Source: Escherichia coli (GTDB lineage: Bacteria > Pseudomonadota > Gammaproteobacteria > Enterobacterales > Enterobacteriaceae). Taken from it: a DNA stretch of 64,000 nucleotides. Positions 669 through 62,227 of the stretch are shown piece after piece. The position numbers and the translations under genes were made by a program. Location: the NCBI RefSeq assembly GCF_003790525.1, contig NZ_CP033635.1. One strand, given 5' to 3'. Each line of letters begins with the position of its first letter. The first letter of the stretch is position 1. The notes beneath the pieces are model-generated. The model was not told the DNA's origin. It did not search any database and saw only the letters and a program-made list of their open reading frames with translations.

Positions 669-980
669 ATGCCTGGAAAAACAGTCGCTCTACCCGATAT
701 CGATAAAACGCTGAAAAATGCGCGGGTTGAACTCAAAACCAGCCCCGACGCCAAAAACAAACTTCGTGAAGCTGCGCAAGCCGTTGGGGTAGATTTAAGC
801 GCTTTTATTTTGAGCGCAGCTATGGAACGCGCCGAAAGTGTGCTTGATAACCAACGTCGCCGTGAGCTTTCGAATCAAAGCTGGGAACTGATGAACCAAC
901 TCATCGCTGAACCTGCTCAACCGACGCTCGCCCTCAAGGCGTTAATGAAAAGGAAAAACAGCGATGGTCGACAAGCATGA
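669..980 (+). CDS. Type II antitoxin, ribbon-helix-helix DUF1778/TacA-like (partner of GNAT toxin)
   Basis: Small protein with the characteristic AFILSAAMERAE segment; ATG at 669 preceded by aagagg (658-663). The ORF track start at 603 is probably an over-extension. Overlaps the downstream toxin by 17 nt. Confidence 0.7.
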   Translation: MPGKTVALPDIDKTLKNARVELKTSPDAKNKLREAAQAVGVDLSAFILSAAMERAESVLDNQRRRELSNQSWELMNQLIAEPAQPTLALKALMKRKNSDGRQA

Positions 981-1506
981 AGAGATTACTCTGCCCATAG
1001 TCCTCTCCTGTAATTATCAGTCTGATATTACTTATCCTGGGCAAAAACAGTTTGATTGCGGTAACCCTGTTATCGATAAATTTGTACGCGCATCGCTAAA
1101 GAAAAGTGTGCGTAATAGCGACTGTGCTGCTAAAGCTCTTATTGACAGACAAAGTGGTGAACTGATTGGCATCTGTACTTTTACGGCATATTCGCTGGAA
1201 AAACAACGCGTTTCTGGCGTCCTTCAGGGTTCACAACCTTCAGAGATTGGTGTTGTCAGATTAGTCATGTTAGGGGTAGCGCGGAAATATCAAAAGCGGG
1301 GCTTTGGTCAGGACCTACTATGTGATTTTTTTGAACATGTAAAAATAATTCACCGGGCATTACCAATTAAAGGGGTTTATCTTGATGCTGACCCTGCCGC
1401 CATTAACTTTTATACTCGCCTCGGCTTTGTTCAGCTTTCAGCGAGGCCCAATGTTTTCGGTGCTGTACCGATGTTTTTAGCGATTCAGCATATTCTCGCG
1501 GCTTAG
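964..1506 (+). CDS. GNAT-family acetyltransferase toxin (TacT/AtaT/ItaT-like, tRNA-acetylating type)
   Basis: 180 aa with the QFDCG motif typical of GNAT toxins, an acetyl-CoA binding signature (QKRGFGQ) and C-terminal FYTRLGF; translationally coupled to the upstream antitoxin. Confidence 0.7.
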   Translation: MVDKHEEITLPIVLSCNYQSDITYPGQKQFDCGNPVIDKFVRASLKKSVRNSDCAAKALIDRQSGELIGICTFTAYSLEKQRVSGVLQGSQPSEIGVVRLVMLGVARKYQKRGFGQDLLCDFFEHVKIIHRALPIKGVYLDADPAAINFYTRLGFVQLSARPNVFGAVPMFLAIQHILAA

Positions 1507-1561: not shown

Positions 1562-2497
1562 TTACCACTTTTGTTCAATTGCCCCCGCTTTCAGCAACTC
1601 CACATCCTTGCCGTTAATGGTTGCCGTTGCGGCAACGATTGTGGTCCTTACAGTTGCACAAGATTTTCGCTCAAATTCCGGTTTATAAAGAATTAGAGAC
1701 GAATTACTGGTAAATGAATCAAATATGTAATCAGTAAAGCTAATATTCAGCCGGTTTAAACCGAAAGGCGCGAAGCCAACCGTTTGGTTAATCTCCTTAC
1801 CGGATGGGCTACGAATGCTGAATGTCACGCGAAGATTGGCCACTTCGCCTAATTTATTGGTGGTGGCGAAGAGGCTATCCATGCAGGAAAAACCTTTATC
1901 TAAAAAATTATCCCGCATCCCAGAACGGGTAACCGTGATCACGGGTAACGTATCGTCAACCGTTTTTCTGTCAATCATGTCTTTTCGACATGTAGCCAGA
2001 AAGTCTTCCGGACCACCATAAATGTGGACACCTTTATCAAGATATTCCTTCGCTTTCTTACAATCTACCTCAACATACTGACCATTGGCGTACATCATGC
2101 CCAACCTGGACCATGCTAAATTCACACCGTATTGCGCGGCCTGATTAAATAGTGCATACGCTTTGGCATAATCCACCCGCACCAGCTCACCGTCGTAGTA
2201 GATACTCCCCAGCGCTAACGGAGCTTCTCTATCACCGTGTTTAGCGGCTAACTCAAACCATTTAATCGCTTCCTGAACATCAGGTTTGGTATCAAAGCGA
2301 GGCTGATAATATTCCCAGCCTAACAGGCTCTGCGCGTCGACATCTCCCAATTCAGCCATTTTATGCAGTCTATTTATAACATCGGGCGCAGGTTGACCAC
2401 CGTATATGCTGTCATACAATTCATGCGCTTTCTCGCTTGCCACCACGCATGGTGAAACTATTAGCATTAAAGAAAATAATATTCTTTTAGTTAACAT
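1562..2497 (-). CDS. Secreted Sel1-repeat (TPR-like) protein with an uncharacterised C-terminal domain
   Basis: Start chosen at ATG 2497 (aaagg Shine-Dalgarno upstream), giving MLTKRILFSLMLIVSPCVVA as a signal peptide. Several Sel1-like repeats (LGW, LALGSIYYDG, LAWSRLGMMYANG) are followed by a ~140-aa region with no recognised motif. Confidence 0.65.
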   Translation of the reverse strand: MLTKRILFSLMLIVSPCVVASEKAHELYDSIYGGQPAPDVINRLHKMAELGDVDAQSLLGWEYYQPRFDTKPDVQEAIKWFELAAKHGDREAPLALGSIYYDGELVRVDYAKAYALFNQAAQYGVNLAWSRLGMMYANGQYVEVDCKKAKEYLDKGVHIYGGPEDFLATCRKDMIDRKTVDDTLPVITVTRSGMRDNFLDKGFSCMDSLFATTNKLGEVANLRVTFSIRSPSGKEINQTVGFAPFGLNRLNISFTDYIFDSFTSNSSLILYKPEFERKSCATVRTTIVAATATINGKDVELLKAGAIEQKW

Positions 2498-2903
2498 GTA
2501 TACCTTTATGTTCTCTCTGTCATATATTTCCATAATAATTAACCACCAAACATCCATTTAATGAATAAATACAGTACCATAAAGGCCCAAGTAATAAGCA
2601 CACATTTAACCTGAAACATTATCATCGATGTCACCAAATCGTTTATTTAGTGAGATAAAAATAGCATGTTCGCAAGATAAAAAATGCACATAGCAATCAA
2701 GAAATAATATTATTACTTTTGATGTAAAACTATTTAGCTTTAAGAATAATTTTTTCAACATATAGAGCATTCATTTTATGAATGCAAAATAAACATACCT
2801 GACACACAAACTATTCTCCTCTGTAATATTTTCTCATTAACACTCTGTTTACCCAACATGCGCTCCGCACTACACTATGTGGGCATTTTTTTAAGAGGTG
2901 GTA

Positions 2904-4268
2904 ATGAACGATTATAAAATGACGCCAGGTGAGCGGCGCGCGACCTGGGGTTTAGGCACCGTTTTCTCGTTGCGCATGCTGGGCATGTTCATGGTTCTGC
3001 CGGTTCTGACCACGTACGGCATGGCTCTGCAAGGTGCCAGCGAAGCATTAATCGGTATTGCCATTGGTATTTATGGTCTGACTCAGGCCGTTTTTCAGAT
3101 TCCGTTTGGCCTGCTTTCAGACCGCATTGGTCGCAAACCATTAATTGTCGGTGGGCTGGCGGTGTTTGCCGCCGGTAGCGTTATCGCTGCGCTCTCTGAC
3201 TCCATCTGGGGAATTATTCTGGGCCGGGCGCTACAAGGCTCCGGTGCGATTGCCGCTGCCGTTATGGCGCTGCTTTCCGATCTTACGCGCGAACAAAACC
3301 GCACCAAAGCGATGGCGTTTATCGGCGTGAGCTTTGGCATTACCTTTGCCATTGCGATGGTGCTTGGCCCGATCATCACTCACAAACTTGGGCTGCACGC
3401 GCTGTTCTGGATGATCGCTATTCTGGCAACAACCGGCATTGCGTTGACCATTTGGGTTGTGCCCAACAGTAGCACTCACGTACTTAATCGTGAGTCCGGA
3501 ATGGTGAAAGGCAGTTTCAGTAAAGTGCTGGCGGAACCGCGGTTGCTGAAACTCAACTTTGGCATTATGTGTCTACACATGCTTCTGATGTCTACGTTTG
3601 TTGCCCTGCCCGGACAGCTGGCTGATGCGGGGTTCCCGGCGGCTGAACACTGGAAGGTCTATCTGGCGACGATGCTAATCGCCTTTGGCTCGGTCGTGCC
3701 TTTCATTATCTACGCTGAAGTTAAGCGCAAAATGAAGCAAGTCTTTGTCTTCTGCGTCGGATTGATCGTGGTTGCGGAAATTGTGTTGTGGAACGCACAA
3801 ACGCAGTTCTGGCAACTGGTGGTCGGCGTGCAGCTTTTCTTTGTAGCGTTTAATTTGATGGAAGCCCTTCTGCCTTCACTTATCAGTAAAGAGTCGCCTG
3901 CAGGTTACAAAGGTACGGCGATGGGTGTTTACTCCACCAGCCAGTTTCTTGGCGTGGCGATTGGCGGTTCGCTGGGCGGCTGGATTGACGGCATGTTTGA
4001 CGGTCAGGGCGTATTTCTCGCTGGCGCAATGCTGGCCGCAGTGTGGCTGGCAGTCGCCAGTACCATGAAAGAACCGCCGTATGTCAGCAGCTTGCGCATT
4101 GAAATCCCGGCGGACATTGCCGCAAACGAAGCGTTAAAAGTACGTTTGCTGGAAACTGAAGGCGTCAAAGAAGTGTTGATTGCAGAAGAAGAACATTCAG
4201 CGTATGTGAAAATCGACAGCAAAGTGACGAATCGCTTTGAGGTTGAACAGGCAATTCGCCAGGCATAA
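2904..4268 (+). CDS. yajR: MFS-family inner membrane transporter YajR
   Basis: MNDYKMTPGERRATWGLG N-terminus, 12-TM MFS core plus C-terminal soluble domain; ATG at 2904 with aagagg upstream. Confidence 0.9.
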   Translation: MNDYKMTPGERRATWGLGTVFSLRMLGMFMVLPVLTTYGMALQGASEALIGIAIGIYGLTQAVFQIPFGLLSDRIGRKPLIVGGLAVFAAGSVIAALSDSIWGIILGRALQGSGAIAAAVMALLSDLTREQNRTKAMAFIGVSFGITFAIAMVLGPIITHKLGLHALFWMIAILATTGIALTIWVVPNSSTHVLNRESGMVKGSFSKVLAEPRLLKLNFGIMCLHMLLMSTFVALPGQLADAGFPAAEHWKVYLATMLIAFGSVVPFIIYAEVKRKMKQVFVFCVGLIVVAEIVLWNAQTQFWQLVVGVQLFFVAFNLMEALLPSLISKESPAGYKGTAMGVYSTSQFLGVAIGGSLGGWIDGMFDGQGVFLAGAMLAAVWLAVASTMKEPPYVSSLRIEIPADIAANEALKVRLLETEGVKEVLIAEEEHSAYVKIDSKVTNRFEVEQAIRQA

Positions 4269-11309: not shown

Positions 11310-12284
11310 ATGCAATACAACCCCTTAGGAAAAACCGACCTTCGCGTTTCCCGACTTTGCCTCGGCTGTATGACCTTTGGCGAGCCAGATCGCGGTAATC
11401 ACGCATGGACACTGCCGGAAGAAAGCAGCCGTCCCATCATTAAACGCGCGCTGGAAGGCGGCATAAATTTCTTTGATACCGCCAATAGCTATTCCGATGG
11501 CAGCAGCGAAGAGATCGTCGGTCGCGCACTGCGGGATTTCGCCCGTCGTGAAGACGTGGTCGTTGCGACCAAAGTGTTCCATCGCGTTGGTGATTTACCG
11601 GAAGGATTATCCCGTGCACAAATTTTGCGCTCTATCGACGACAGCCTGCGCCGTCTCGGCATGGATTATGTCGATATCCTGCAAATTCATCGCTGGGATT
11701 ACAACACGCCGATCGAAGAGACGCTGGAAGCCCTCAACGACGTGGTAAAAGCCGGGAAAGCGCGTTATATCGGCGCGTCATCCATGCACGCTTCGCAGTT
11801 TGCTCAAGCACTGGAACTACAAAAACAGCACGGCTGGGCGCAGTTTGTCAGTATGCAGGATCACTACAATCTGATTTATCGTGAAGAAGAGCGCGAGATG
11901 CTGCCGCTGTGTTATCAGGAAGGCGTGGCGGTGATTCCATGGAGCCCGCTGGCGCGGGGCCGTCTGACGCGTCCTTGGGGAGAAACCACCGCACGGCTGG
12001 TGTCGGATGAAGTGGGGAAAAATCTCTACCAAGAAAGCGATGAAAATGACGCACAAATTGCAGAACGCTTAACGGGCGTCAGTGAAGAACTTGGTGCAAC
12101 ACGAGCACAAGTTGCGCTGGCCTGGTTGTTGAGTAAACCGGGCATTGCCGCACCGATTATCGGAACTTCGCGGGAAGAACAGCTTGATGAGCTGCTGAAC
12201 GCGGTGGATATCACTTTAAAGCCGGAACAGATTGCTGAACTGGAAACGCCGTATAAACCGCATCCGGTAGTAGGATTTAAATAG
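11310..12284 (+). CDS. yajO: Aldo-keto reductase YajO
   Basis: 324 aa aldo/keto reductase fold, MQYNPLGKTDLRVSRLCLGCMTFG. Confidence 0.9.
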   Translation: MQYNPLGKTDLRVSRLCLGCMTFGEPDRGNHAWTLPEESSRPIIKRALEGGINFFDTANSYSDGSSEEIVGRALRDFARREDVVVATKVFHRVGDLPEGLSRAQILRSIDDSLRRLGMDYVDILQIHRWDYNTPIEETLEALNDVVKAGKARYIGASSMHASQFAQALELQKQHGWAQFVSMQDHYNLIYREEEREMLPLCYQEGVAVIPWSPLARGRLTRPWGETTARLVSDEVGKNLYQESDENDAQIAERLTGVSEELGATRAQVALAWLLSKPGIAAPIIGTSREEQLDELLNAVDITLKPEQIAELETPYKPHPVVGFK

Positions 12285-12291
12285 GTATGCA

Positions 12292-12326
12292 GGCCTGATG
12301 AGACGTGACAAGCGTCACATCAGGCA
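12292..12326. repeat. REP-type palindromic element between yajO and pgpA
   Basis: gcctgatg...catcaggc inverted repeat (12293-12300 / 12318-12325) with an internal gacgtgac / gtcac palindrome. Confidence 0.5.
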
Positions 12327-12337
12327 TCGGTGCACAA

Positions 12338-12856
12338 CTACGACAGAATACCCAGCGGCCAGTGATGTCCAATAAAGTACAGGATGCCTGCGGAAATCAC
12401 CCCGGCGACAATATCGTCAATCATGATCCCCATGCCGCCATGTACATTGCGATCAAACCAACGGATCGGCCACGGCTTCCACATATCCAGAATACGGAAA
12501 ATCACAAACCCGGCGGCAACCCACTGCCAGTCATTGGTCGGCAGCGCCATGAGCGTGATCCACATACCGATAAATTCGTCCCAGACAATGCTGCCGTGAT
12601 CGTGCACACCCATGTCTTTCGCCGTTTGATGACAAAGATACACGCCGATACAGATCCCCAGCATCACCACCAGCGAATAGAGCTGCCAGGGCAAAAAAGT
12701 CATCAGATACCAGAACGGAATCGCTGCCAGCGATCCCATCGTGCCAGGAACGATTGGGCTTAATCCACTTCCGAATCCGACAGCAAGCAGATGCCACGGA
12801 TTACTCATCTTCAGGCGACTTTTCGCGACATCTTTATGGCGTGGCAAAATGGTCAT
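12338..12856 (-). CDS. pgpA: Phosphatidylglycerophosphatase A
   Basis: 172 aa membrane protein matching PgpA. Confidence 0.9.
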
Positions 12857-16593: not shown

Positions 16594-16722
16594 ATGAATA
16601 CTAACGTTTTTCGACTGCTCCTGCTGGGAAGCCTGTTCAGCCTTAGCGCCTGTGTGCAGCAAAGCGAAGTGCGGCAGATGAAACACAGCGTCAGCACACT
16701 GAACCAGGAGATGACGCAACTC
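16594..16722 (+). pseudogene. yajI: 5' fragment of lipoprotein gene yajI, interrupted by an IS200/IS605-family element
   Basis: MNTNVFRLLLLGSLFSLSAC lipoprotein signal; the frame continues into IS-derived sequence after codon 43 (MTQL, 16711-16722). Confidence 0.75.
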
Positions 16723-16733
16723 ATTGACATCCT

Positions 16734-16753
16734 CCACGCCCTGAAGGACGTGG
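16734..16753. repeat. Subterminal hairpin at the tnpB-proximal end of the IS element (right-end type)
   Basis: ccacg / cgtgg stem with loop ccctgaagga, about 11 nt inside the inferred end. Confidence 0.6.
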
Positions 16754-16766
16754 ATCCCTGCTACGT

Positions 16767-17975
16767 TCAGGCTGTCGCCTGAATCATTTCGGTGGGTTCC
16801 TGCTTCAACGGGCGGCCTGACTGCACCATCCCTCCACAGGCAAGAACGGCGTGCCCCGCCGCTAAAATGTTACGAGCGCCATTTACATCGGCGTTCGCTG
16901 TATATCCACATACCTGGCATCTGAATTGACTTTGTGACAGGCGATTTTCTTTCGCTGTATGACCACAGCACGTGCAACGCTGGCTTGTGTACGCTGGCGG
17001 AACAGCAAGCACCTGACCGCCACGCCAGAGCTGCTTGTACTCAAGCTGGCGGCGCATTTCATACCAGCCCTGATCCAGTACCGAACGGTTTAAACCTGAT
17101 TTTGCCCGGACATTGCGTCCCGGCTGGCTGACCGTACCCGCTGCTGACTTTGACATGTTGCTGACCTTCAAATCCTCAATGACTATCATTGCGTGGTTTT
17201 TGCTGACGGTCGTTGTGACTTTGTGAAGGTAGTCCCTGCGGATATTTGCGATACGGGAATGCAGTCGCTGTATTTTGCGTTTCTGCTTCTGCCAGTTATT
17301 GCTGAATTCGACCTTGCGGCTTAACTGTCGCTGAAGTCTCGCCAGCGTCTTCTGGTTTTTCTGAAAACTGTTTACAGGCTCAAAGACTGTGCCATCTGAC
17401 AGCGTGGCGAGTTTAGCCACGCCAGCATCCAGCCCGACCATTGATGCTGAAGGGTGAACCGGAGTGGATACTTCACTTTCTGTCTGAATACTGATGTACC
17501 ACTTACCGCAGGACTGGCTGACAGTGACATTTTTCACAACACCCGTGACCTGGCGGCTGTTCCGGTAGCGCATCCAGCCCAGTTTCGGCAGAAAAATACG
17601 GCTGTTTTCCTGATCGAGCTTAACGCCCTGCGGGTAGCGGAATGCATCATTCTGTCCCCGCTTTTTGAATCGGGGAAAAGCAGCCCGCTTCTGGAAGAAG
17701 TTTTTGTAAGCCCGCTCAAGGTCTTTCAGTGACTGTTGCAATGGCTGTGAGGGCGAATCTTTAAGCCATTGCGTTCCAGTGGCGTTTTTCCACTCAACCA
17801 GCCAGGAAGCCATTTTCCCGTAAGGGATGTATTTATTACCGGCCTCATGATTCTCATTCTGAAGCGCCAGAGCACGATTGAAAACGAAACGACATGCGCC
17901 TGCGAAGCGCCTCATTTCATGCTCCTGTTGACCACCGGGTCTTAACTGGAATTTAAATGCCTGTAGTCGTTTCAC
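16767..17975 (-). CDS. tnpB: TnpB (OrfB) RNA-guided endonuclease of an IS200/IS605-family element
   Basis: 402 aa; RuvC-like motifs ([23 protein letters not shown]) and a C-terminal CxxC...CxxC zinc finger; N-terminal KFQLRP...RFVFNRAL helix; GTG start at 17975. Confidence 0.88.
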
Positions 17976-18045
17976 AGGTCAAATTATATTTTGGTCTGTG
18001 AAAAAAGAAACCGATATCCGGCGTGGAAGGCATTGTGTTTTCCTG

Positions 18046-18420
18046 ATGCATGTTCACCTGGTCTTTGTCCCAAATACCGACGCCAGATTTTTGACCATGA
18101 CGCGACAGAAAAACTACGCACTTACTTTTCAAATGTATGTGCTGATTTTGAAGCTGAACGGGTTGAAATGGATGGCGAACCAGATCACGTCCATTTGTTA
18201 ATTAACTATCCTCCCAAACTGGCGATATCCAGTCTGGTAAACAGCCTCAAAGGTGTATCGGGTAGGTGACTGCGACGAGATCGACCAGATATTGCAGTCA
18301 GGTATTACTACAAAGGCGTTTTGTGGAGTCCTGGCTATTTTGCCAGTAGCTGCGGAGGTGCGCCAATATCCGTCATCCGCCAATACATTGAACAACAGCA
18401 AACACCTGGTCAGGTGGAAA
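18046..18420 (+). pseudogene. tnpA: IS200-type HUH (Y1) transposase tnpA, disrupted by at least two frameshifts
   Basis: Conserved segments are split across three frames: MHVHLVFVP (frame of 18046), PKYRRQIF...EPDHVHLLINYPPKL...SLKGVS (frame of 17991) and WSPGYFASSCGGAPISVIRQYIEQQ (frame of 18321). The first shift coincides with the aaa run at 18071-18073. Confidence 0.75.
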
Positions 18421-18434
18421 ACCGCGCCTTATAT

Positions 18435-18454
18435 CCCCGCCCTGAAGGACGGGG
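18435..18454. repeat. Subterminal hairpin at the tnpA-proximal end of the IS element (left-end type)
   Basis: ccccg / cgggg stem with the same ccctgaagga loop as at the other end, about 19 nt inside the inferred end. Confidence 0.6.
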
Positions 18455-18472
18455 TTTTACGGCGCACCGGAT

Positions 18473-18880
18473 AAAGAAACCGTCAAAATCACTCAGCAAA
18501 ACAGGCTGAATGCAAAATCCAGCAGTGGGGTTTACCTTCTGCCTGGAGCGAAAACACCGGCAAGACTGGAAAGCCAGATCGGTACTTTACGTATGTCGCT
18601 AGTGAATATTACGCATGATACAGATGGCACCACCCTGACGCTACGTATTCAGGGCGAGTCGAATGACCCCTTGCCCGCATTCAGCGGAACTGTTGAATAT
18701 GGGCAAATTCAGGGAACAATAGACAACTTTCAGGAAATCAATTTGCAGAATCAATTGATTAATGCCCCTGCCAGCGTCCTCGTCCCCAGCGATGTTGATA
18801 TTCCGTTACAGTTAAAGGGGATTTCTGTAGAACAGTTAGACTTTGTACGTATCCACGACATTCAACCTGTTATGCAGTAA
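18473..18880 (+). pseudogene. yajI: 3' fragment of yajI downstream of the IS insertion
   Basis: Frame reads ...ETVKITQQNRLNAKSSSGVYLLPGAKTPARLESQIGTLRMSLVNITHDTDG... to a stop at 18878-18880; out of frame with the 5' fragment because of the insertion. Confidence 0.7.
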
Positions 18881-20535: not shown

Positions 20536-20850
20536 TTACCAGTGACGGCGAGGTTCCATCAGCTGATGAAGAATGCGCGCAATGAGAATGTCATCGACTC
20601 TTATAACGTAATAAACAGTGTGAAACCTAAATGCGATCTTCTTTACCTCTGGAATCGCATCATAGTCTTGCCCTATCTCGGGCATTTGAGAGAGTGTATC
20701 CAGAAAAATGCCGAGAGAGTCGGTATAGCGATCCGCCTGCTCCTCACCAAACTTTCCCAGCGTGTAGTCATAGATCCCTCTGAAATCTTCAACAGCTTTT
20801 CCGCTAAGCTTATACACGATGTTTTTGCTTCCTTTCTGCTGCGATATCAC
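20536..20850 (-). CDS. ParE/RelE-superfamily type II toxin
   Basis: About 100 aa with a ParE-like profile (KNIVYKLSGKAVEDFRGIYDYT ... RFHTVYYVIRVDDILIARILHQ); only in-frame start is GTG at 20850, overlapping the antitoxin 3' end by 41 nt, so the start is uncertain. Confidence 0.65.
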   Translation of the reverse strand: MISQQKGSKNIVYKLSGKAVEDFRGIYDYTLGKFGEEQADRYTDSLGIFLDTLSQMPEIGQDYDAIPEVKKIAFRFHTVYYVIRVDDILIARILHQLMEPRRHW

Positions 20851-21052
20851 GAAGCGTCATCGAACTTTCACCGCTCTCAAGACCTTCAATAACAGCATTT
20901 CTGACAGCTTCATCCCTGGATTCTTGTTGTTCCAATAGACGAAGCGCTGAACGCATTACTTCACTGGCCGAGCCATAACGACCAGACTGGACCATCCGTG
21001 TAATAAAACTATCTAATTGTTCGCCAACGCTTACTGAGGTAATTTTGCGCAT
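20810..21052 (-). CDS. ParD/CopG-like ribbon-helix-helix antitoxin
   Basis: 80 aa, ...SFITRMVQSGRYGSASEVMRSALRLLEQQE... typical of the ParD antitoxin family; ATG at 21052 with ggagat Shine-Dalgarno; immediately upstream of the ParE-like toxin. Confidence 0.7.
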   Translation of the reverse strand: MRKITSVSVGEQLDSFITRMVQSGRYGSASEVMRSALRLLEQQESRDEAVRNAVIEGLESGESSMTLRDIAAERKQKHRV

Positions 21053-26759: not shown

Positions 26760-27341
26760 ATGAATTTTTTAGCTCACCTGCATTTAGCCCATCTCGCGGA
26801 AAGCTCGCTTTCCGGCAATTTGCTGGCTGATTTCGTACGCGGAAATCCTGAAGAAAGTTTTCCGCCCGACGTCGTGGCTGGCATTCATATGCATCGGCGT
26901 ATCGACGTACTAACCGACAATCTGCCGGAAGTCCGCGAAGCACGGGAATGGTTTCGTAGTGAAACTCGCCGCGTTGCGCCTATTACGCTGGATGTCATGT
27001 GGGATCACTTTCTTTCCCGCCACTGGTCGCAGCTGTCGCCGGACTTTCCGCTACAGGAATTTGTCTGTTATGCCCGCGAGCAAGTGATGACGATTTTGCC
27101 GGACTCACCGCCACGTTTTATCAATCTGAACAATTACTTGTGGTCAGAGCAGTGGCTGGTGCGCTATCGCGATATGGATTTCATCCAGAACGTGTTAAAC
27201 GGCATGGCAAGCCGTCGCCCACGTCTGGATGCCCTGCGTGACTCCTGGTACGATTTAGACGCCCATTACGATGCTCTCGAAACCCGCTTCTGGCAGTTTT
27301 ATCCGCGGATGATGGCGCAGGCGTCACGCAAGGCGCTCTGA
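26760..27341 (+). CDS. acpH: Acyl carrier protein phosphodiesterase
   Basis: 193 aa, [28 protein letters not shown]... Confidence 0.92.
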
Positions 27342-27361
27342 AACTTCAAGCTCCGGCGTCA

Positions 27362-28807
27362 CTATTTTTTAGCATTCGCATCCAGCGGAGCGGCATAACA
27401 ACTGTAAGAAAAACATTCGCTGGAATGATTGGCGATATCTTTAAAGTTGCTTTCAGCAACCCCCTCGAACATGAGTACCGTTCTGGACAACTCTCCGTTG
27501 TCATTTATATGTGGAAAATCAAATTGTGTACTGAATCGCCATACATCTGTCTTTTCTGGCTCGCTGTTCACAGAGATACGTCGATGGAAGACTCCTCCTG
27601 AAAACGTGCGCCAGAACAATTGTTGATCAAAATCTTGTAATATCTCAGAGTTGGATGCTATTTGATGTAGTAAACCTGCATACCGTGGACTGCCATTACG
27701 AGCAACATTATGCAAACCCTGACTAAAAGCATCAAACAAACAATAGATGTGATCACTAGTGAAAAAAGGTCTTAATTTTTTTTGTTCTTCATCGCTGTAA
27801 TCCAGGAGCATCTCATTGATTTCTTCCGGTGAGAATTTTAAGACAAAATTATCCTCAGGATTTGTTTCTTTCTTGTTTTTTTCACTATTCTTCTCCTCAA
27901 TGGTCTTCGCATTTTGTTTCGCAATTTTTTCCTCAGTTTTTTTCGCAATTTTTTCCGCAATTTTTTCCCGAGTTTTTGATTTTAGACTAACACCATCGAT
28001 GTCAACCGATGTTGTTTTCAGATCTCTCTGCGCGTCTTTCAAATTTGTCTTATAGAGATCAGGCACTTTATCGGCAGATAAGTATCCGGATGAAGAAATC
28101 TGGTGTGTACGCATGGGGGGCTGTTCACAAAGCATCGAGGCTATATCGTCTTTAAACTCTTTTACATTAAAGTTATCGGCATTAACCTTCCCTGTTATAA
28201 ACCCCGCATCGGCAATTTTCTTCTCTAATTGTTTTGTACGTTTAGAATAATAAGCGTTGTTATCATAAAACTTTTCAAGAAGGGCCCACTCCTCAAGTTG
28301 CCTTATGTGATTTTTCAACTGTTGATGATCTATTTTATATTCATGTGTACTAGAATCATTTTGGTTGCAAGAGTTACAGATTTTTAAGCATAATTTTCCA
28401 TCAGATTTATCATCTATGGTATCAGTGAAAATATAGGACACTTCAATATTCTGCCCGTTCTTATCAGTCATCTCATATGACCATTGCCCCGTTCGTTTCG
28501 CATTCTTAATGAGTTCGATGGACTCTGCAGGACAACCATGAAGAATGGGCAGAATTTTATCAGGATGCTTAATGAGTAAAATTATTATATTTACAATGTT
28601 TGAAAAGAAATCTTTGCTATTTTTTATTTCATCGATTTTTTCCGCTGAAATGTTTACTAAGTTTTCATTTCCGGAAATGAAAAGCAATTTGCCATGGGGG
28701 CTTTTTTTAAATTGTTCTTCTGTTTTAGAAAAAACATCCTCTTTAAAAGGTGGCAACTCAGTACCAGGAATAAACGGTTTCAATAAATTCGAATTTGAAA
28801 TTGTCAT
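27362..28807 (-). CDS. Hypothetical 481-aa protein, no family recognised; AT-rich single-gene insertion between acpH and malZ
   Basis: Uninterrupted ORF with ATG at 28807 and ggag Shine-Dalgarno 7 nt upstream. Lys/Asn/Glu/Ser/Ile-rich, no signal peptide or TM helix, an internal (EKIA)n repeat, a CLKICNSC cysteine cluster and a more conserved-looking C-terminal third. Flanked by housekeeping genes; by eye clearly lower GC than the flanks. Confidence 0.6.
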   Translation of the reverse strand: MTISNSNLLKPFIPGTELPPFKEDVFSKTEEQFKKSPHGKLLFISGNENLVNISAEKIDEIKNSKDFFSNIVNIIILLIKHPDKILPILHGCPAESIELIKNAKRTGQWSYEMTDKNGQNIEVSYIFTDTIDDKSDGKLCLKICNSCNQNDSSTHEYKIDHQQLKNHIRQLEEWALLEKFYDNNAYYSKRTKQLEKKIADAGFITGKVNADNFNVKEFKDDIASMLCEQPPMRTHQISSSGYLSADKVPDLYKTNLKDAQRDLKTTSVDIDGVSLKSKTREKIAEKIAKKTEEKIAKQNAKTIEEKNSEKNKKETNPEDNFVLKFSPEEINEMLLDYSDEEQKKLRPFFTSDHIYCLFDAFSQGLHNVARNGSPRYAGLLHQIASNSEILQDFDQQLFWRTFSGGVFHRRISVNSEPEKTDVWRFSTQFDFPHINDNGELSRTVLMFEGVAESNFKDIANHSSECFSYSCYAAPLDANAKK

Positions 28808-28913
28808 ATCTTTGCTCCACTACAGGGTTATCCTGGAGCATGTTGTACATAACCTCATTGGCAAAGAATACCAAAAATCGCTCATATCGAACGGGACAAA
28901 TATTTAACAAACT

Positions 28914-28961
28914 CAGCCCTGACATTGAGCAGCTTTTTTGCGCTGCGTAGTGTCAGGGCTG
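28914..28961. repeat. Long inverted repeat in the malZ 3' region (possible terminator between malZ and the inserted gene)
   Basis: cagccctgaca (28914-28924) and tgtcagggctg (28951-28961) are perfect reverse complements around a 26-nt loop that itself contains a T-run. Confidence 0.4.
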
Positions 28962-28993
28962 GTGACTACGACGTAATAAATAAAACAGATGCT

Positions 28994-30808
28994 TTAGTTG
29001 ATCCACACCGTAGCCGAAATGGCAGGCAAAGCCAGAATCCCGTCTGTCAGTTGCCCATGGCCTTCTTTGCGTTGCCATTGCGCAACATTAAGCAACGGTG
29101 ACGCGGGTAGCACCACTTCACAGGCTTCTCCACGGTTGATTGCCACCAGTACACGCTGCTGATTCAGCACGCGGCCAAATACCACCACGTTATCTTCCGC
29201 ATACAGCACCTGACAGCCGCCACGACGCAGCGCCTGACTTTTCTTACGCAGCGCAATCATTCGCTGGTACAGCGCGAATAACGCCGTATCCTGCTTTTCC
29301 ACCTGCCAGGGGAACGGTTTACGGCAAAACGGATCGTTTTTACCATCCAGCCCCACTTCATCACCGTAATAAATGCACGGTACACCAGGCCAGGTGAACA
29401 ACCAGACCACCGCCAGCGGCAGGCGCGCAATATCCCGACCGAGCAGCGTTTTAAATCGCGCAGTATCGTGGCTATCGAGCTGATTAAACATACGCAGTTG
29501 CTGTTGATGAGAAAGTCCGGCGCGGTAATTATCCATCCAGGCCATACAGGTTTGGGCGTCAATTTGCTGCGGATCATAAGAGATGTCGGTATTGGCAAGA
29601 AATCCCCACAACGGGAATGTGAAGCCGCGATAGTTCATGGCGGCATCTTCCACATCGGCCTGTAACCATTGCCGTGCATCGCCAAAATGCTCTCCAACGA
29701 TATACGCTTCCGGCTGGGTTTCTTTCGCCGCTTCGGTGATCCCGGCAACGTGCTGCAAATTATTGCGCGCCCCACCCGCTTCCCCCAGCATATGCACCAC
29801 ATCCAGCCGCCAGCCGTCCATATTCCACGGCGCTTTCAGCCAGTGGCGGACAATACTGTCTTCCCCGCGATAAATTTCATTCACCAGACTTTCCGACTGA
29901 TAATCCAGTTTCGGCAAGCTGGCATAGCCCAGCCAGTCGAGCGCCGTGCCATCGTCACTAAACGAGTACCAGTCGCGCCAGGGCGATTCGGGGTTGTGAC
30001 AAGCACCACCCGTGCCACGATTGTGCCTGTCAAACCAGGCATGGGAATCGCCACTGTGGTTAAACACGCCATCCAGCACCAGCCGCATTCCCAGCTGCTG
30101 CGTATGGTGTCGCAAACGCAGCAACGCTCCGTCGCCGCCAAACTGCGGATCGACGTGGCGATAATCCTCTGTATCGTATTTATGTACGCTGGGGGCTTTA
30201 AACACCGGGTTAAGATACAGCGCCGTCACGCCGAGCTTTTTCAGATACGGCAGTTTTTCGCTGATACCGTCCAGATCGCCGCCATAGAACGTTGATCCGC
30301 CCGCCTGCGCCGTGACCGGTTCATCCCAGTCACGCAATATGATCTCTTGTCCGGCTGCGTGATGGTAATAAACATGATCCTGTTCAGCTTCACGAGGAAG
30401 ACTACGGGCGAAACGATCAGGGAAGATCTGATAAAAAATCTGATCCGCAGCCCATTGTGGGCCGATATCCGGGACATCGACAGCAAACTGCTCCAGTCGT
30501 GCTGGCGGCATTCGGCTGAAGCCCTGCGGTGTAAACCAACGCTGGCGATCGTGCCACAGTAATTTGAAACTATAACGCCGCCGAGGTTGCCCGCTGGAGA
30601 GATCGATCGCCGCCCGCCATGCGGTAACGCCAGGCTGCGGCTGACTGCGCTGCTTATGCATCGCTACTGACGTTTCTTCGTTGTCGTGTTCTGTACGCAG
30701 CATAATGCGCTGCGGTGGGTCTTCGCCCGTCAGCCACAGTGTAATAAGCAGTTGATCTTTGCTTTGTTTAACAAATGGGGGCACCGGCAGGTGCCATGCA
30801 TTTAACAT
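28994..30808 (-). CDS. malZ: Maltodextrin glucosidase
   Basis: About 604 aa GH13 enzyme, [45 protein letters not shown]... Confidence 0.93.
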
Positions 30809-30966
30809 CATAATTCCCCTGTGATGAAAATCTGATCACCTTGCCATAGCCTAATGCAGGATCACTCATCATCTGAAGGATATTTGGGGGAGGAGGACGG
30901 GGGCGGATAACTTTCGGAATAGCCGGATCAGGATTTCCTCCTGAACCGGCTTACAGAACGCAAGGA

Positions 30967-58780: not shown

Positions 58781-61702
<2,922 letters not shown>

Positions 61703-62227
61703 TTGTCATCCCTCCTCAGGGACGTAATAAGTTGATCCATCAATTATCAATGCATAGAAAACATATTATGTTTCGCGCTAACGATTATGCGGCGTTATTG
61801 AGGAATGGTTCAATTATTCTTTCCCCGAAGTCCGGTTACGGACATATATAAAGCACGGAGGAACACACAAAGAAAAAATTGATAAAAGCTTAATGTTTCA
61901 ACAAGTTAACAGGAGTTCCATTTTTAAAGCATATGCATTTAAAATATCAAACACACAAACCAGACAAATAATCTATCAATAACCAATGAACTTTAAATCA
62001 TTCCGTTTTTGAAAACGTCACCAAATCCCCAAAAACAATAATCTATAGCTATAAATAAAAATTAAAAATATTTTCAATGAATATAAATTTATTGCTATTT
62101 CTATTACAAAGATGTCCTGACCTCTCATTCATTCTCTTCTTGTCAACATCGCGACAACTTTCGTAAAACATCCCCACCCTGCTTCAGGTATACTATGCCC
62201 CTCGATTCCACAAACATCAGGCAGACC

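Follow-up and report, generated by a model that had tools for sequence, protein, structure and literature searches.

An islet of AT-rich DNA separates acpH from malZ in this strain of Escherichia coli and carries a single gene, which encodes a protein of 481 aa. The explanation that we prefer, with about an even chance of being right, is that the islet is genuine foreign DNA and that its gene is a real, dispensable, lineage-restricted E. coli orphan, which has been spread or erased by recombination in the flanking DNA. Judged by its sequence, the gene appears to belong to no known defence system or effector family. It is already present in databases as ECs_0454 and is thus not a new gene there. 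All coordinates refer to the window, the whole stretch of 64,000 nucleotides that was analysed (contig NZ_CP033635.1).

The islet at the acpH–malZ junction

In the K-12 lineage (MC4100), the stop codons of acpH and malZ are separated by 4 bp, in agreement with the gap of less than 100 bp given in the preliminary description. The same 4-bp spacer is found in four non-coli representatives (Escherichia sp. MOD1-EC7003, Escherichia sp. E1V33, E. albertii, and SCPM-O-B-8794), and we regard it as the ancestral state of the genus. When aligned with the empty junction of K-12, the window shows an islet of ~1,649 extra bp in this spacer (27345..28993, no strand assigned). The GC content is 37.4% for the islet and 36.4% for its open reading frame (ORF), against 50.6% for the whole 64-kb window; along the sequence, GC fractions of 0.32–0.39 over 27600–28950 stand against 0.52–0.58 in the flanks. 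These values confirm an AT-rich insertion of the size first noticed (~1.6 kb) and, together with the empty K-12 junction, support the horizontal acquisition of a single-gene islet that had been proposed.

To the left of the islet lies acpH (26760..27341, + strand), which is convergent with the ORF, with 20 nt between their stop codons. To the right lies malZ (28994..30811, − strand), which runs in the same direction as the ORF and upstream of it. No tRNA, integrase or partner gene is found near the islet, as had been stated, and a repeat finder detects no terminal inverted repeats at its ends. A mobile element (an IS, an integrative islet or a MITE) was rejected because there is no transposase or integrase, there are no end repeats, and the islet occurs as a single copy per genome. 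A doubtful 6-bp repeat, T(G/A)AAAC, can be seen at both ends of the islet. An Rfam search of the islet returned nothing significant. In other genera, the same junction contains an unrelated gene for a 200-aa peroxiredoxin-like protein and other unrelated ORFs; a remote homologue of the 481-aa ORF among these was ruled out by phmmer (E at least 0.14).

Between malZ and the ORF, 31 nt past the malZ stop codon, RNA folding and an inverted repeat (I3) reveal a strong hairpin (28911..28963, − strand). The 137-nt segment that contains it folds at −41.5 kcal/mol (z = −3.6), and none of 200 shuffled sequences is as stable. The stems of the hairpin are invariant in 14 alleles, and K-12 has no such element; the hairpin came with the islet and is probably the malZ terminator. 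A second, small hairpin followed by a T-run (28879..28893, − strand) is weakly terminator-like by consensus scan and folding. The 186-bp region upstream of the ORF, which includes the hairpin and the Shine-Dalgarno sequence, is conserved (pi = 0.020 versus a dS of 0.055 for the ORF). A simple scan of the coding strand found no sigma-70 promoter upstream of the ORF. An extended −10-like element (TGGTATTCT) was spotted, by eye only, ~60 nt upstream.

An orphan gene without detectable relatives

The ORF (27362..28807, − strand) starts with ATG, has no internal stop codon, and has orthologs in O157:H7 Sakai (ECs_0454), EDL933 (WP_000155946.1) and EAEC 042 (WP_000155936.1), all of them annotated as "hypothetical protein". 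By our own calculation, with ~7% stop codons per codon expected at this composition, the probability of an open frame of 481 codons arising by chance is ~1e-16, and the frame is unbroken in 240 distinct full-length protein variants. A Shine-Dalgarno GGAG, read from the sequence and invariant in 14 alleles, lies 7 nt upstream of the ATG (28815..28818, − strand), in keeping with the intact ORF and good ribosome-binding site first described; this site, too, came with the islet. A search of the literature on the gene (by locus tags and accessions, junction genes, and the supplement of an O-island review) yielded no mention of it and no record of expression, protein or phenotype.

The features listed in the preliminary description, namely the CLKICNSC cluster, the (EKIA)n stretch and the C-terminal FWRTFSGGVFHRR and WRFSTQFDFPHINDNG strings, are all present in the translation. 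It also holds that the protein has neither a signal peptide nor a transmembrane helix: the most hydrophobic 19-mer (aa 71–89, KD 1.56) is broken by K80, H81, D83 and K84. No recognisable family had been found at first sight, and profile, sequence and deep homology searches likewise give no significant match. Pfam (at a significance cut-off of E <= 0.001), NCBIfam, PADLOC, PHROGs and the PDB (searched by sequence and profile) contain nothing significant for the protein, and no relatives are found among species representatives. A deep scan of 1.84 billion representatives returned one full-length cluster, which is its own. At the level of sequence, the protein has no detectable relative among ~15 billion proteins.

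Two partial resemblances deserve mention. The first is a weak match to PKD-like repeats (P0139), in which aa 102–158 share 31% of their residues with each of three repeats in a repetitive protein of 947 aa. PKD-like repeats form beta-sandwiches, and the matched region is predicted to form a four-strand beta-meander; however, the Pfam PKD models give no match and the protein lacks a signal peptide. PKD family membership was rejected, since the E value of 8e-7 is inflated by three near-identical repeats and covers only ~57 residues. The second is the cysteine cluster C140-x3-C144-x2-C147 (28367..28390, − strand), whose Cys columns are nearly invariant across the 240 variants. Its spacing is identical to that of the radical-SAM CX3CX2C motif, but it is predicted to lie within beta-strands (AF2) and other radical-SAM features are absent. 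A radical SAM enzyme was rejected, as Pfam yields no Radical_SAM hit even with the threshold relaxed to E <= 10, and we regard CLKICNSC as either a coincidental motif or a small metal site.

Among known kinds of genes, the ORFans of E. coli O-islands and S-loops are the closest comparison. Like them, the gene is AT-rich, absent from K-12, confined to a narrow clade, under weak purifying selection and frequently lost, and it shows the marks of an ORFan: no outside homologue, an atypical composition together with an empty ancestral site, and coding evidence. Most ORFans are short, whereas this one is long at 481 aa, has a clear two-module build and a demonstrably maintained frame. O-islands consist mostly of genes of unknown function (PMC8565820).

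Two conserved modules and a variable linker

Across the 240 variants, the mean per-site entropy is 0.57 in the centre of the protein versus ~0.15 elsewhere. The conserved N-terminal module (aa 1–250; 28058..28807, − strand) has an entropy of 0.12–0.20 and, for aa 1–100, a pN/pS of 0.45. In a low-confidence AF2 model, it consists of a polar N-terminus, helices, a four-strand beta-meander (aa 107–159) and then long helices. The hypervariable central region (aa 251–394; 27626..28057, − strand) includes an E/K-rich helical linker and has a pN/pS of 0.7–1.05. The conserved C-terminal module (aa 395–481; 27365..27625, − strand; entropy 0.15, pN/pS 0.54) is predicted, again at low confidence, to form a four-strand antiparallel sheet. 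No fold can be predicted confidently for the protein, and the structure models are to be regarded as unreliable; the only stretch with an AF2 pLDDT of ~70 is aa 271–315, which is 40–53% E+K and predicted to be helical.

The (EKIA)n stretch is encoded by a 12-bp tandem repeat of ~5 copies (27908..27978, − strand), detected by TRF and a repeat finder. Its copy number varies between strains, so that the protein measures between 469 and 493 aa, in steps of 4 aa, and the indels at nt 840–873 of the gene are multiples of 12 nt. In a second, common allele class of 461 aa, the repeat has been lost or replaced and the central region has diverged deeply or lost some of its length (dN 0.26, dS 0.33), giving a mosaic; the C-terminal module is near-identical even there. 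These sequence comparisons show a protein with two conserved modules, between which lies a charged linker that is hypervariable and polymorphic in length. This build resembles ER/K single alpha-helix spacers and VNTR linkers, in that an E/K-rich helical stretch arises from a copy-variable 12-bp repeat. Unlike in those, the repeat is not conserved here and the helix is a predicted one. Since the repeat is missing from the 461-aa class, a function as a precise 'ruler' is unlikely.

Distribution and recombination

The gene is carried by 1,127 of 5,426 complete E. coli genomes (~21%), always in the chromosome, at one site and in single copy. Carriers include O157:H7, EAEC 042 and the lineage of SMS-3-5, an environmental isolate with 3 differences from the window over ~61 kb. 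Every one of the 240 full-length variants belongs to E. coli, Shigella or Escherichia. No phage copies and no true plasmid copies were found; a plasmid location was discarded, as the two 'plasmid' matches are mislabelled 4.9-Mb chromosomes. The phylogroups of most carriers were taken from strain names and general knowledge rather than from a computed tree. Carriers fall on either side of the root in the E. coli tree of PMC2808357. The dS of the ORF (0.055) is about half of that of the flanking genes (0.10–0.14), which could partly reflect the composition of the ORF and not a younger age. Because of this lower dS and the carriers on both sides of the root, we favour recombinational spread.

In the explanation that we prefer, the gene would have been acquired once from an AT-rich donor, and homologous recombination in the core genes around it would since have carried it from lineage to lineage or removed it. 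Its product would be soluble and synthesised in the cytoplasm; cells could do without it, and it would help them at most under certain conditions. We think it likelier that the protein acts by binding or as an adaptor, with two interaction modules and a tolerant spacer, than that it is an enzyme; the sole basis for this reading is that enzymatic motifs are lacking and that the architecture is one of modules plus a spacer. That the gene is translated and conditionally useful is suggested solely by how it has evolved.

Selection and disruption

Constraint on the amino-acid sequence is very weak, yet the frame is kept open. Pooled pairwise dN/dS is 0.71 for the ORF versus 0.026 for acpH, 0.069 for malZ and 0.019 for queA, and omega is 0.6–0.8 even in the deeply diverged patch. 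The gene has also been inactivated independently at least five times. A +1 frameshift is common to two strains and a −1 frameshift lies inside the repeat of a third (three of the 13 sampled alleles are frameshifted); further disruptions are an IS3 insertion, an IS1 insertion and a deletion in O55:H7.

These observations raise the alternative of a functionless relic, a former gene in foreign DNA that is now silent and drifting, and that has simply escaped destruction in most lineages. We consider this unlikely, although less so than the alternatives discussed below. The counts of nonsynonymous and synonymous variants match the neutral expectation exactly (161:49 observed versus 154:47), the transition/transversion ratio of 0.86 is typical of unselected change, and a site-count dN/dS of ~1 is also what would be expected of a functionless gene. 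The frameshifts, IS insertions and deletion point the same way, as do the missing sigma-70-like promoter on the coding strand and the lack of any literature record of expression. However, not one of the 210 variants is a nonsense variant where 9.1 are expected (Poisson P = 1e-4, in a sample of 13 alleles of which related ones share history), and this deficit implies that the gene is not simply dead. Pairwise dN/dS is below 1 and drops to 0.45–0.54 in the terminal modules, indels across the many full-length variants are nearly all in-frame, and the Shine-Dalgarno sequence does not vary. Both terminal modules are moreover kept where the centre has diverged by ~26% at nonsynonymous sites.

The preliminary description had named frameshifts in close relatives as a sign that the ORF is a decaying remnant. 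This sign is partly there: frameshifts, IS insertions and a deletion occur in relatives, and dN/dS is near-neutral; the copy in the window, however, is intact, and the nonsense deficit and the conservation of both terminal modules speak against decay. An important undescribed function becomes less likely because of the disrupted relatives and the near-neutral dN/dS.

Secreted effector, interaction protein or defence gene

The protein might instead be a type III secretion substrate, that is, a current or former ETT2 or LEE effector with a signal in its polar N-terminus and a fast, host-driven evolution, like espY3. We judge this to be quite improbable. The comparison with OI-26/espY3 (z0521, ECs0472), an O157:H7 T3SS effector gene, is prompted by the layout: espY3 forms a ~2-kb single-gene islet among housekeeping genes without mobility genes, to which our AT-rich single-ORF islet corresponds (PMC8565820). 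In Sakai and EAEC 042, 15 kb separate the espY3 islet from that of ECs_0454, and K-12 has neither. EspY3 has been localised to actin pedestals (PMC8565820; PMC6313403). Unlike the 481-aa protein, EspY3 has a SopD-type WEX5F N-terminal domain and Salmonella homologues (PMC8565820). Our protein shows no similarity to EspY3 (BLASTP E at least 0.5) or to a Pfam effector family, and a suspected relationship with EspY/SopD was ruled out by BLASTP and Pfam. Homologues of the gene are lacking in Salmonella, Citrobacter, E. albertii and other T3SS-bearing taxa, and espY3 is missing from the lineage of the window.

The first 25 aa of the protein contain 48% S/T/N/Q/P/I versus 36% overall, and no acidic residue occurs before position 17, a composition that is compatible with an effector but non-specific. 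Effectors commonly show high dN/dS and repeated pseudogenisation, and a high dN/dS and repeated disruption are seen here as well. The chaperone-binding motif [LMIF]xxx[IV]xx[IV]xN (not universal among effectors) was not found in the first ~150 aa.

Co-occurrence with type III secretion systems was judged from individual strains. EAEC 042, which serves as the reference for a near-complete ETT2 (PMC2808357), carries an intact copy of the gene; some carrier lineages have been reported with an intact or partly intact ETT2, whose attrition is comparable to that of the gene (PMC7058095). However, the link with ETT2-bearing lineages is confounded by shared phylogeny, the ORF is also intact in SMS-3-5, where ETT2 is deleted down to yqeH plus IS1, and the E. 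albertii junction is empty though its ETT2 is intact (PMC4700944). The gene is also not in the homology-based effector table (Table S7) of the EAEC 042 genome paper. The secreted, effector-like virulence factor suggested at first is therefore not supported, as there is neither effector homology nor a match with ETT2 presence.

A related idea, to which we give an equally small chance, is that the protein is the first of a new family of interaction proteins specific to E. coli, acting as a secreted effector or as a sensor of phage or host factors. Its two modules would be binding modules held apart on a charged helix that evolves rapidly and varies in length, the near-neutral average dN/dS would hide diversifying selection in the centre, and the ~481–493-aa and 461-aa classes would represent distinct specificities.

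Least probable, and in our view very doubtful, is an undescribed single-gene anti-phage protein of the abortive-infection type with a variable centre shaped by a phage arms race: an accessory AT-rich gene with a patchy distribution, fast amino-acid evolution and a variable centre between conserved modules would suit it, and PADLOC 2.0 dates from 2023 and is blind to newer or undiscovered systems, but the best PADLOC match (E = 5.5e-4) covers 52 residues (aa 246–297) of low-complexity linker only, nuclease, NADase (TIR/SIR2), protease, ATPase and TM effector domains are all absent (Pfam, NCBIfam, PDB), and dN/dS is high gene-wide and not limited to a sensor region. Defence genes usually move between loci, whereas this gene occupies one fixed locus in 1,127/1,127 carriers, never on a phage or plasmid, and its neighbours are housekeeping genes, with no defence island and no mobile elements. 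Single-gene defence, the other possibility raised in the preliminary description, thus finds no support in a defence match, a domain or a defence-island setting.

Implications

With 481 aa and no relatives, and present in about one-fifth of complete genomes, the protein is among the larger unexplained proteins of the best-studied bacterium. With our results, its gene no longer ranks among the likely candidates for defence or virulence, and its evolutionary profile is now clear: it is real, dispensable and weakly constrained. Its function, if any, is probably niche-specific, and the two modules and two allele classes indicate which parts of the protein deserve attention. Furthermore, the islet documents that DNA can enter a 4-bp spacer without the machinery of a mobile element and then apparently be spread or erased through flanking recombination, which makes it a helpful case when the persistence of orphan genes is considered.

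The islet and its orphan ORF

The region between acpH and malZ holds an ORF on the minus strand (27362..28807) that starts with ATG and comprises 481 codons, confirming the intact ORF of the preliminary description. The ribosome-binding site reported there is a GGAG 7 nt 5′ of the ATG, and the translation contains the described cysteine cluster (C140, C144, C147), EKIA stretch and C-terminal aromatic/His strings. As the stop codons of acpH and malZ are separated by 4 bp in the K-12 lineage, ~1,649 bp (27345-28993) is extra in the window, in agreement with the earlier estimate of ~1.6 kb. The claimed AT-rich composition is borne out as well: overall GC is 36.4% for the ORF and 37.4% for the islet versus 50.6% for the window, and along the ORF it stays at 0.32-0.39, against 0.52-0.58 in the flanks. 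No partner gene, integrase or tRNA was found in the region, as had been stated. Searches of the islet for terminal inverted repeats and Rfam families also returned nothing.

A 12-codon upstream ORF (ATGAGG...CTGTAG; 28820-28858, minus strand), which has no Shine-Dalgarno (SD) sequence of its own, ends directly 5′ of the SD sequence of the main ORF. Its TAG is TAT in four alleles (L088, L093, L094 and that of EAEC 042), which places it in frame with the main ORF, and in these alleles it could possibly form a 17-codon N-terminal extension.

Relatives and distribution

The product belongs to no recognizable family, as the preliminary description held: sequence and profile searches against Pfam, NCBIfam, PADLOC, PHROGs and PDB gave nothing significant. 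A filter-free HMMER search of 1.84 billion representatives of ~15 billion proteins yielded one full-length cluster, its fragments and one distant match, to the PKD-like units of a repeat protein (31% identity to aa 102-158); the near-identity of three of these repeats inflates the E-value. Nor did a search across species, each represented by one genome, detect a relative. Orthologs occur in O157:H7 Sakai (ECs_0454), EDL933 (WP_000155946.1) and EAEC 042 (WP_000155936.1), annotated throughout as 'hypothetical protein'. The ORF is not mentioned in the searchable literature under any derivable gene tag, nor do the O-island review and the effector table in the 042 genome paper include it.

Of 5,426 complete E. 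coli genomes, 1,127 carry the islet, in every case on the chromosome and at the acpH-malZ junction. Among the matches listed (H8-H29), all non-carriers matching both flanks have an 893-bp empty configuration. No copies were found in phages, and two 'plasmid' matches proved to be mislabelled chromosomes.

Origin and proposed spread of the islet

Four representatives of non-coli Escherichia species (Escherichia sp. MOD1-EC7003, Escherichia sp. E1V33, E. albertii and one labelled E. coli SCPM-O-B-8794) share the 4-bp spacer; the empty site is therefore the ancestral state of the genus, and the islet was gained later, within E. coli. Among its carriers are SMS-3-5 (group F/D2) and 042 (D1), with the E. 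coli root falling between them in PMC2808357. Mean dS of the ORF is 0.055, about half that of acpH, malZ and queA (0.10-0.14) in the same strains. Together with one mosaic allele class, this carrier distribution and low dS lead us to infer that the islet was acquired once and that homologous recombination in the flanking genes would then have spread and erased it.

The sole mark at the two islet ends is a doubtful 6-bp direct repeat, T(G/A)AAAC. A 13-nt imperfect direct repeat (27315-27362; GCGCAGGCGTCAC in the acpH 3′ end, GCTCCGGCGTCAC at the islet's left edge) could have been left by the insertion or could be coincidental. Directly 3′ of the malZ stop lies a strong hairpin (folded segment -41.5 kcal/mol, z = -3.6) with stems invariant in 14 alleles; it arrived with the islet and is probably the present-day malZ terminator.

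In other genera, the junction holds an unrelated 200-aa ORF that reads as a putative 2-Cys peroxiredoxin (AhpC)-like gene, conserved in Salmonella (including S. enterica subsp. arizonae), Enterobacter, Leclercia, Pluralibacter, Cedecea and others (junction loci L012, L026, L028, L032, L038, L043, L055, L076, L077), sometimes with further cargo, amounting to 4-5 kb in Enterobacter and relatives. It is absent from all Escherichia examined, where it was evidently lost. In the E. albertii type strain NBRC 107761 (L007, 5580-7405), malZ aligns as two pieces, one spanning aa 1-347 and the other a stand-alone C-terminal ORF of 274 aa, which suggests a frameshift or sequencing error.

Other accessory elements in the window

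Over ~61 kb, 3 mismatches separate the window from E. coli SMS-3-5, and the sole structural difference is an IS3 copy (1,330 bp) that the window lacks and that interrupts an autotransporter-type gene in the SMS-3-5 RefSeq record; the corresponding 970-aa ORF is intact here (58796-61705). A low-GC islet between cyoE and yajR (669-2497; GC ~0.40-0.42 around 1751-3250), annotated from the near-identical SMS-3-5 record with ORFs confirmed open in the window, encodes a DUF1778 antitoxin-like protein (669-980, plus strand), a GNAT acetyltransferase toxin-like protein (964-1506, plus strand) and a 311-aa tetratricopeptide-repeat protein whose N-terminus resembles a signal peptide (1562-2497, minus strand). 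The DUF3251 lipoprotein gene yajI, uninterrupted in EAEC 042 and Sakai, is broken by an IS200/IS605-family element (16594-18880) with a degraded tnpA and an intact 402-aa ORF for a TnpB/InsQ RNA-guided endonuclease (16767-17975, minus strand). A ParD/ParE-type toxin-antitoxin pair between secF and yajD (20536-21052) also occurs in Sakai (ECs_0461/0462) and EAEC 042.

Selection and recurrent inactivation

Selection was assessed in 13 alleles, with identity rank the only criterion of choice. Across them the ORF has a pooled dN/dS of 0.71, versus 0.026 for acpH, 0.069 for malZ and 0.019 for queA. With each variant counted a single time, there are 161 nonsynonymous, 49 synonymous and 0 nonsense changes, where neutrality predicts 153.7, 47.2 and 9.1; the N:S ratio thus fits neutrality, but nonsense variants are significantly too few (Poisson P = 1e-4). 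That the ORF is a functionless relic we consider unlikely.

Constraint is slightly higher at the ends (pN/pS 0.45 for aa 1-100 and 0.54 for aa 401-481) than in the unconstrained middle (0.7-1.05), and entropy over 240 distinct full-length variants is 0.12-0.20 in two conserved modules and 0.57 in the variable center. The EKIA stretch is encoded by a 12-bp tandem repeat (27908-27978), whose varying copy number changes protein length between 469 and 493 aa, 4 aa at a time. A common 461-aa allele class is missing the repeat; it is near-identical to the other alleles over the first 250 residues and the last 90, and has a central patch at dN 0.26 and dS 0.33 (omega 0.6-0.8). The 188 nt upstream (pi = 0.020) are conserved better than the ORF, and its SD sequence is invariant.

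The ORF has been inactivated repeatedly across strains: by a +1 frameshift common to O145 RM12367-C1 and ESDR8, a -1 frameshift inside the repeat in GPEC1446, IS3 and IS1 insertions in SBF22 and E21, respectively, and a deletion in O55:H7 USDA5905 that also removed the malZ 3′ end.

Possible functions

We favor, at an even chance, a genuine orphan gene, lineage-restricted and lying on a small islet without mobility machinery, with its frame maintained and its amino acids barely constrained, which strains can do without and which helps them under certain conditions at most. Judged from sequence, a binding or adaptor role would be likelier than an enzymatic one, given the two conserved modules, the tolerant spacer between them and the absence of any catalytic signature.

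The secreted-effector role suggested in the preliminary description, as a type III secretion (T3SS) substrate, appears quite improbable. The islet resembles OI-26/espY3, a single-ORF O-island 15 kb off in Sakai and 042, the polar N-terminus has no acidic residue before position 17, and EAEC 042, with a near-intact ETT2 (a T3SS locus), has an intact ORF copy. However, the product shows no similarity to EspY3 or effector families, carries no chaperone-binding motif and has no homolog in other T3SS-bearing taxa in either the deep protein scan or the one-genome-per-species scan. Two cases also run against co-occurrence with ETT2: the junction is empty in E. albertii despite an intact ETT2 (PMC4700944), and the ORF is intact in SMS-3-5 although espY3 is absent and ETT2 deleted down to yqeH and an IS1, between yqeG and tRNA-Gly (L102, 3,074,481-3,078,870, outside the window). 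In the window, yajO and pgpA are adjacent (12284-12338), without the espY3 islet found there in O157:H7 and EAEC 042, so the two single-gene islets do not co-vary. The lineage distribution of the ORF does resemble that of ETT2 (PMC7058095), a likeness confounded by common phylogeny. The other earlier suggestion, an undescribed single-gene anti-phage defense protein, is very improbable, as the PADLOC alignment is limited to 52 low-complexity residues, an effector-type domain is absent, and the one fixed locus lacks any defense-island or mobile-element context.

AT-rich O-island-type ORFans with no assigned function are already well known as a kind, and the orphan gene described here stands out among them by its length and complete lack of relatives. 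That it is weakly constrained and has been lost repeatedly speaks against a major undescribed function.
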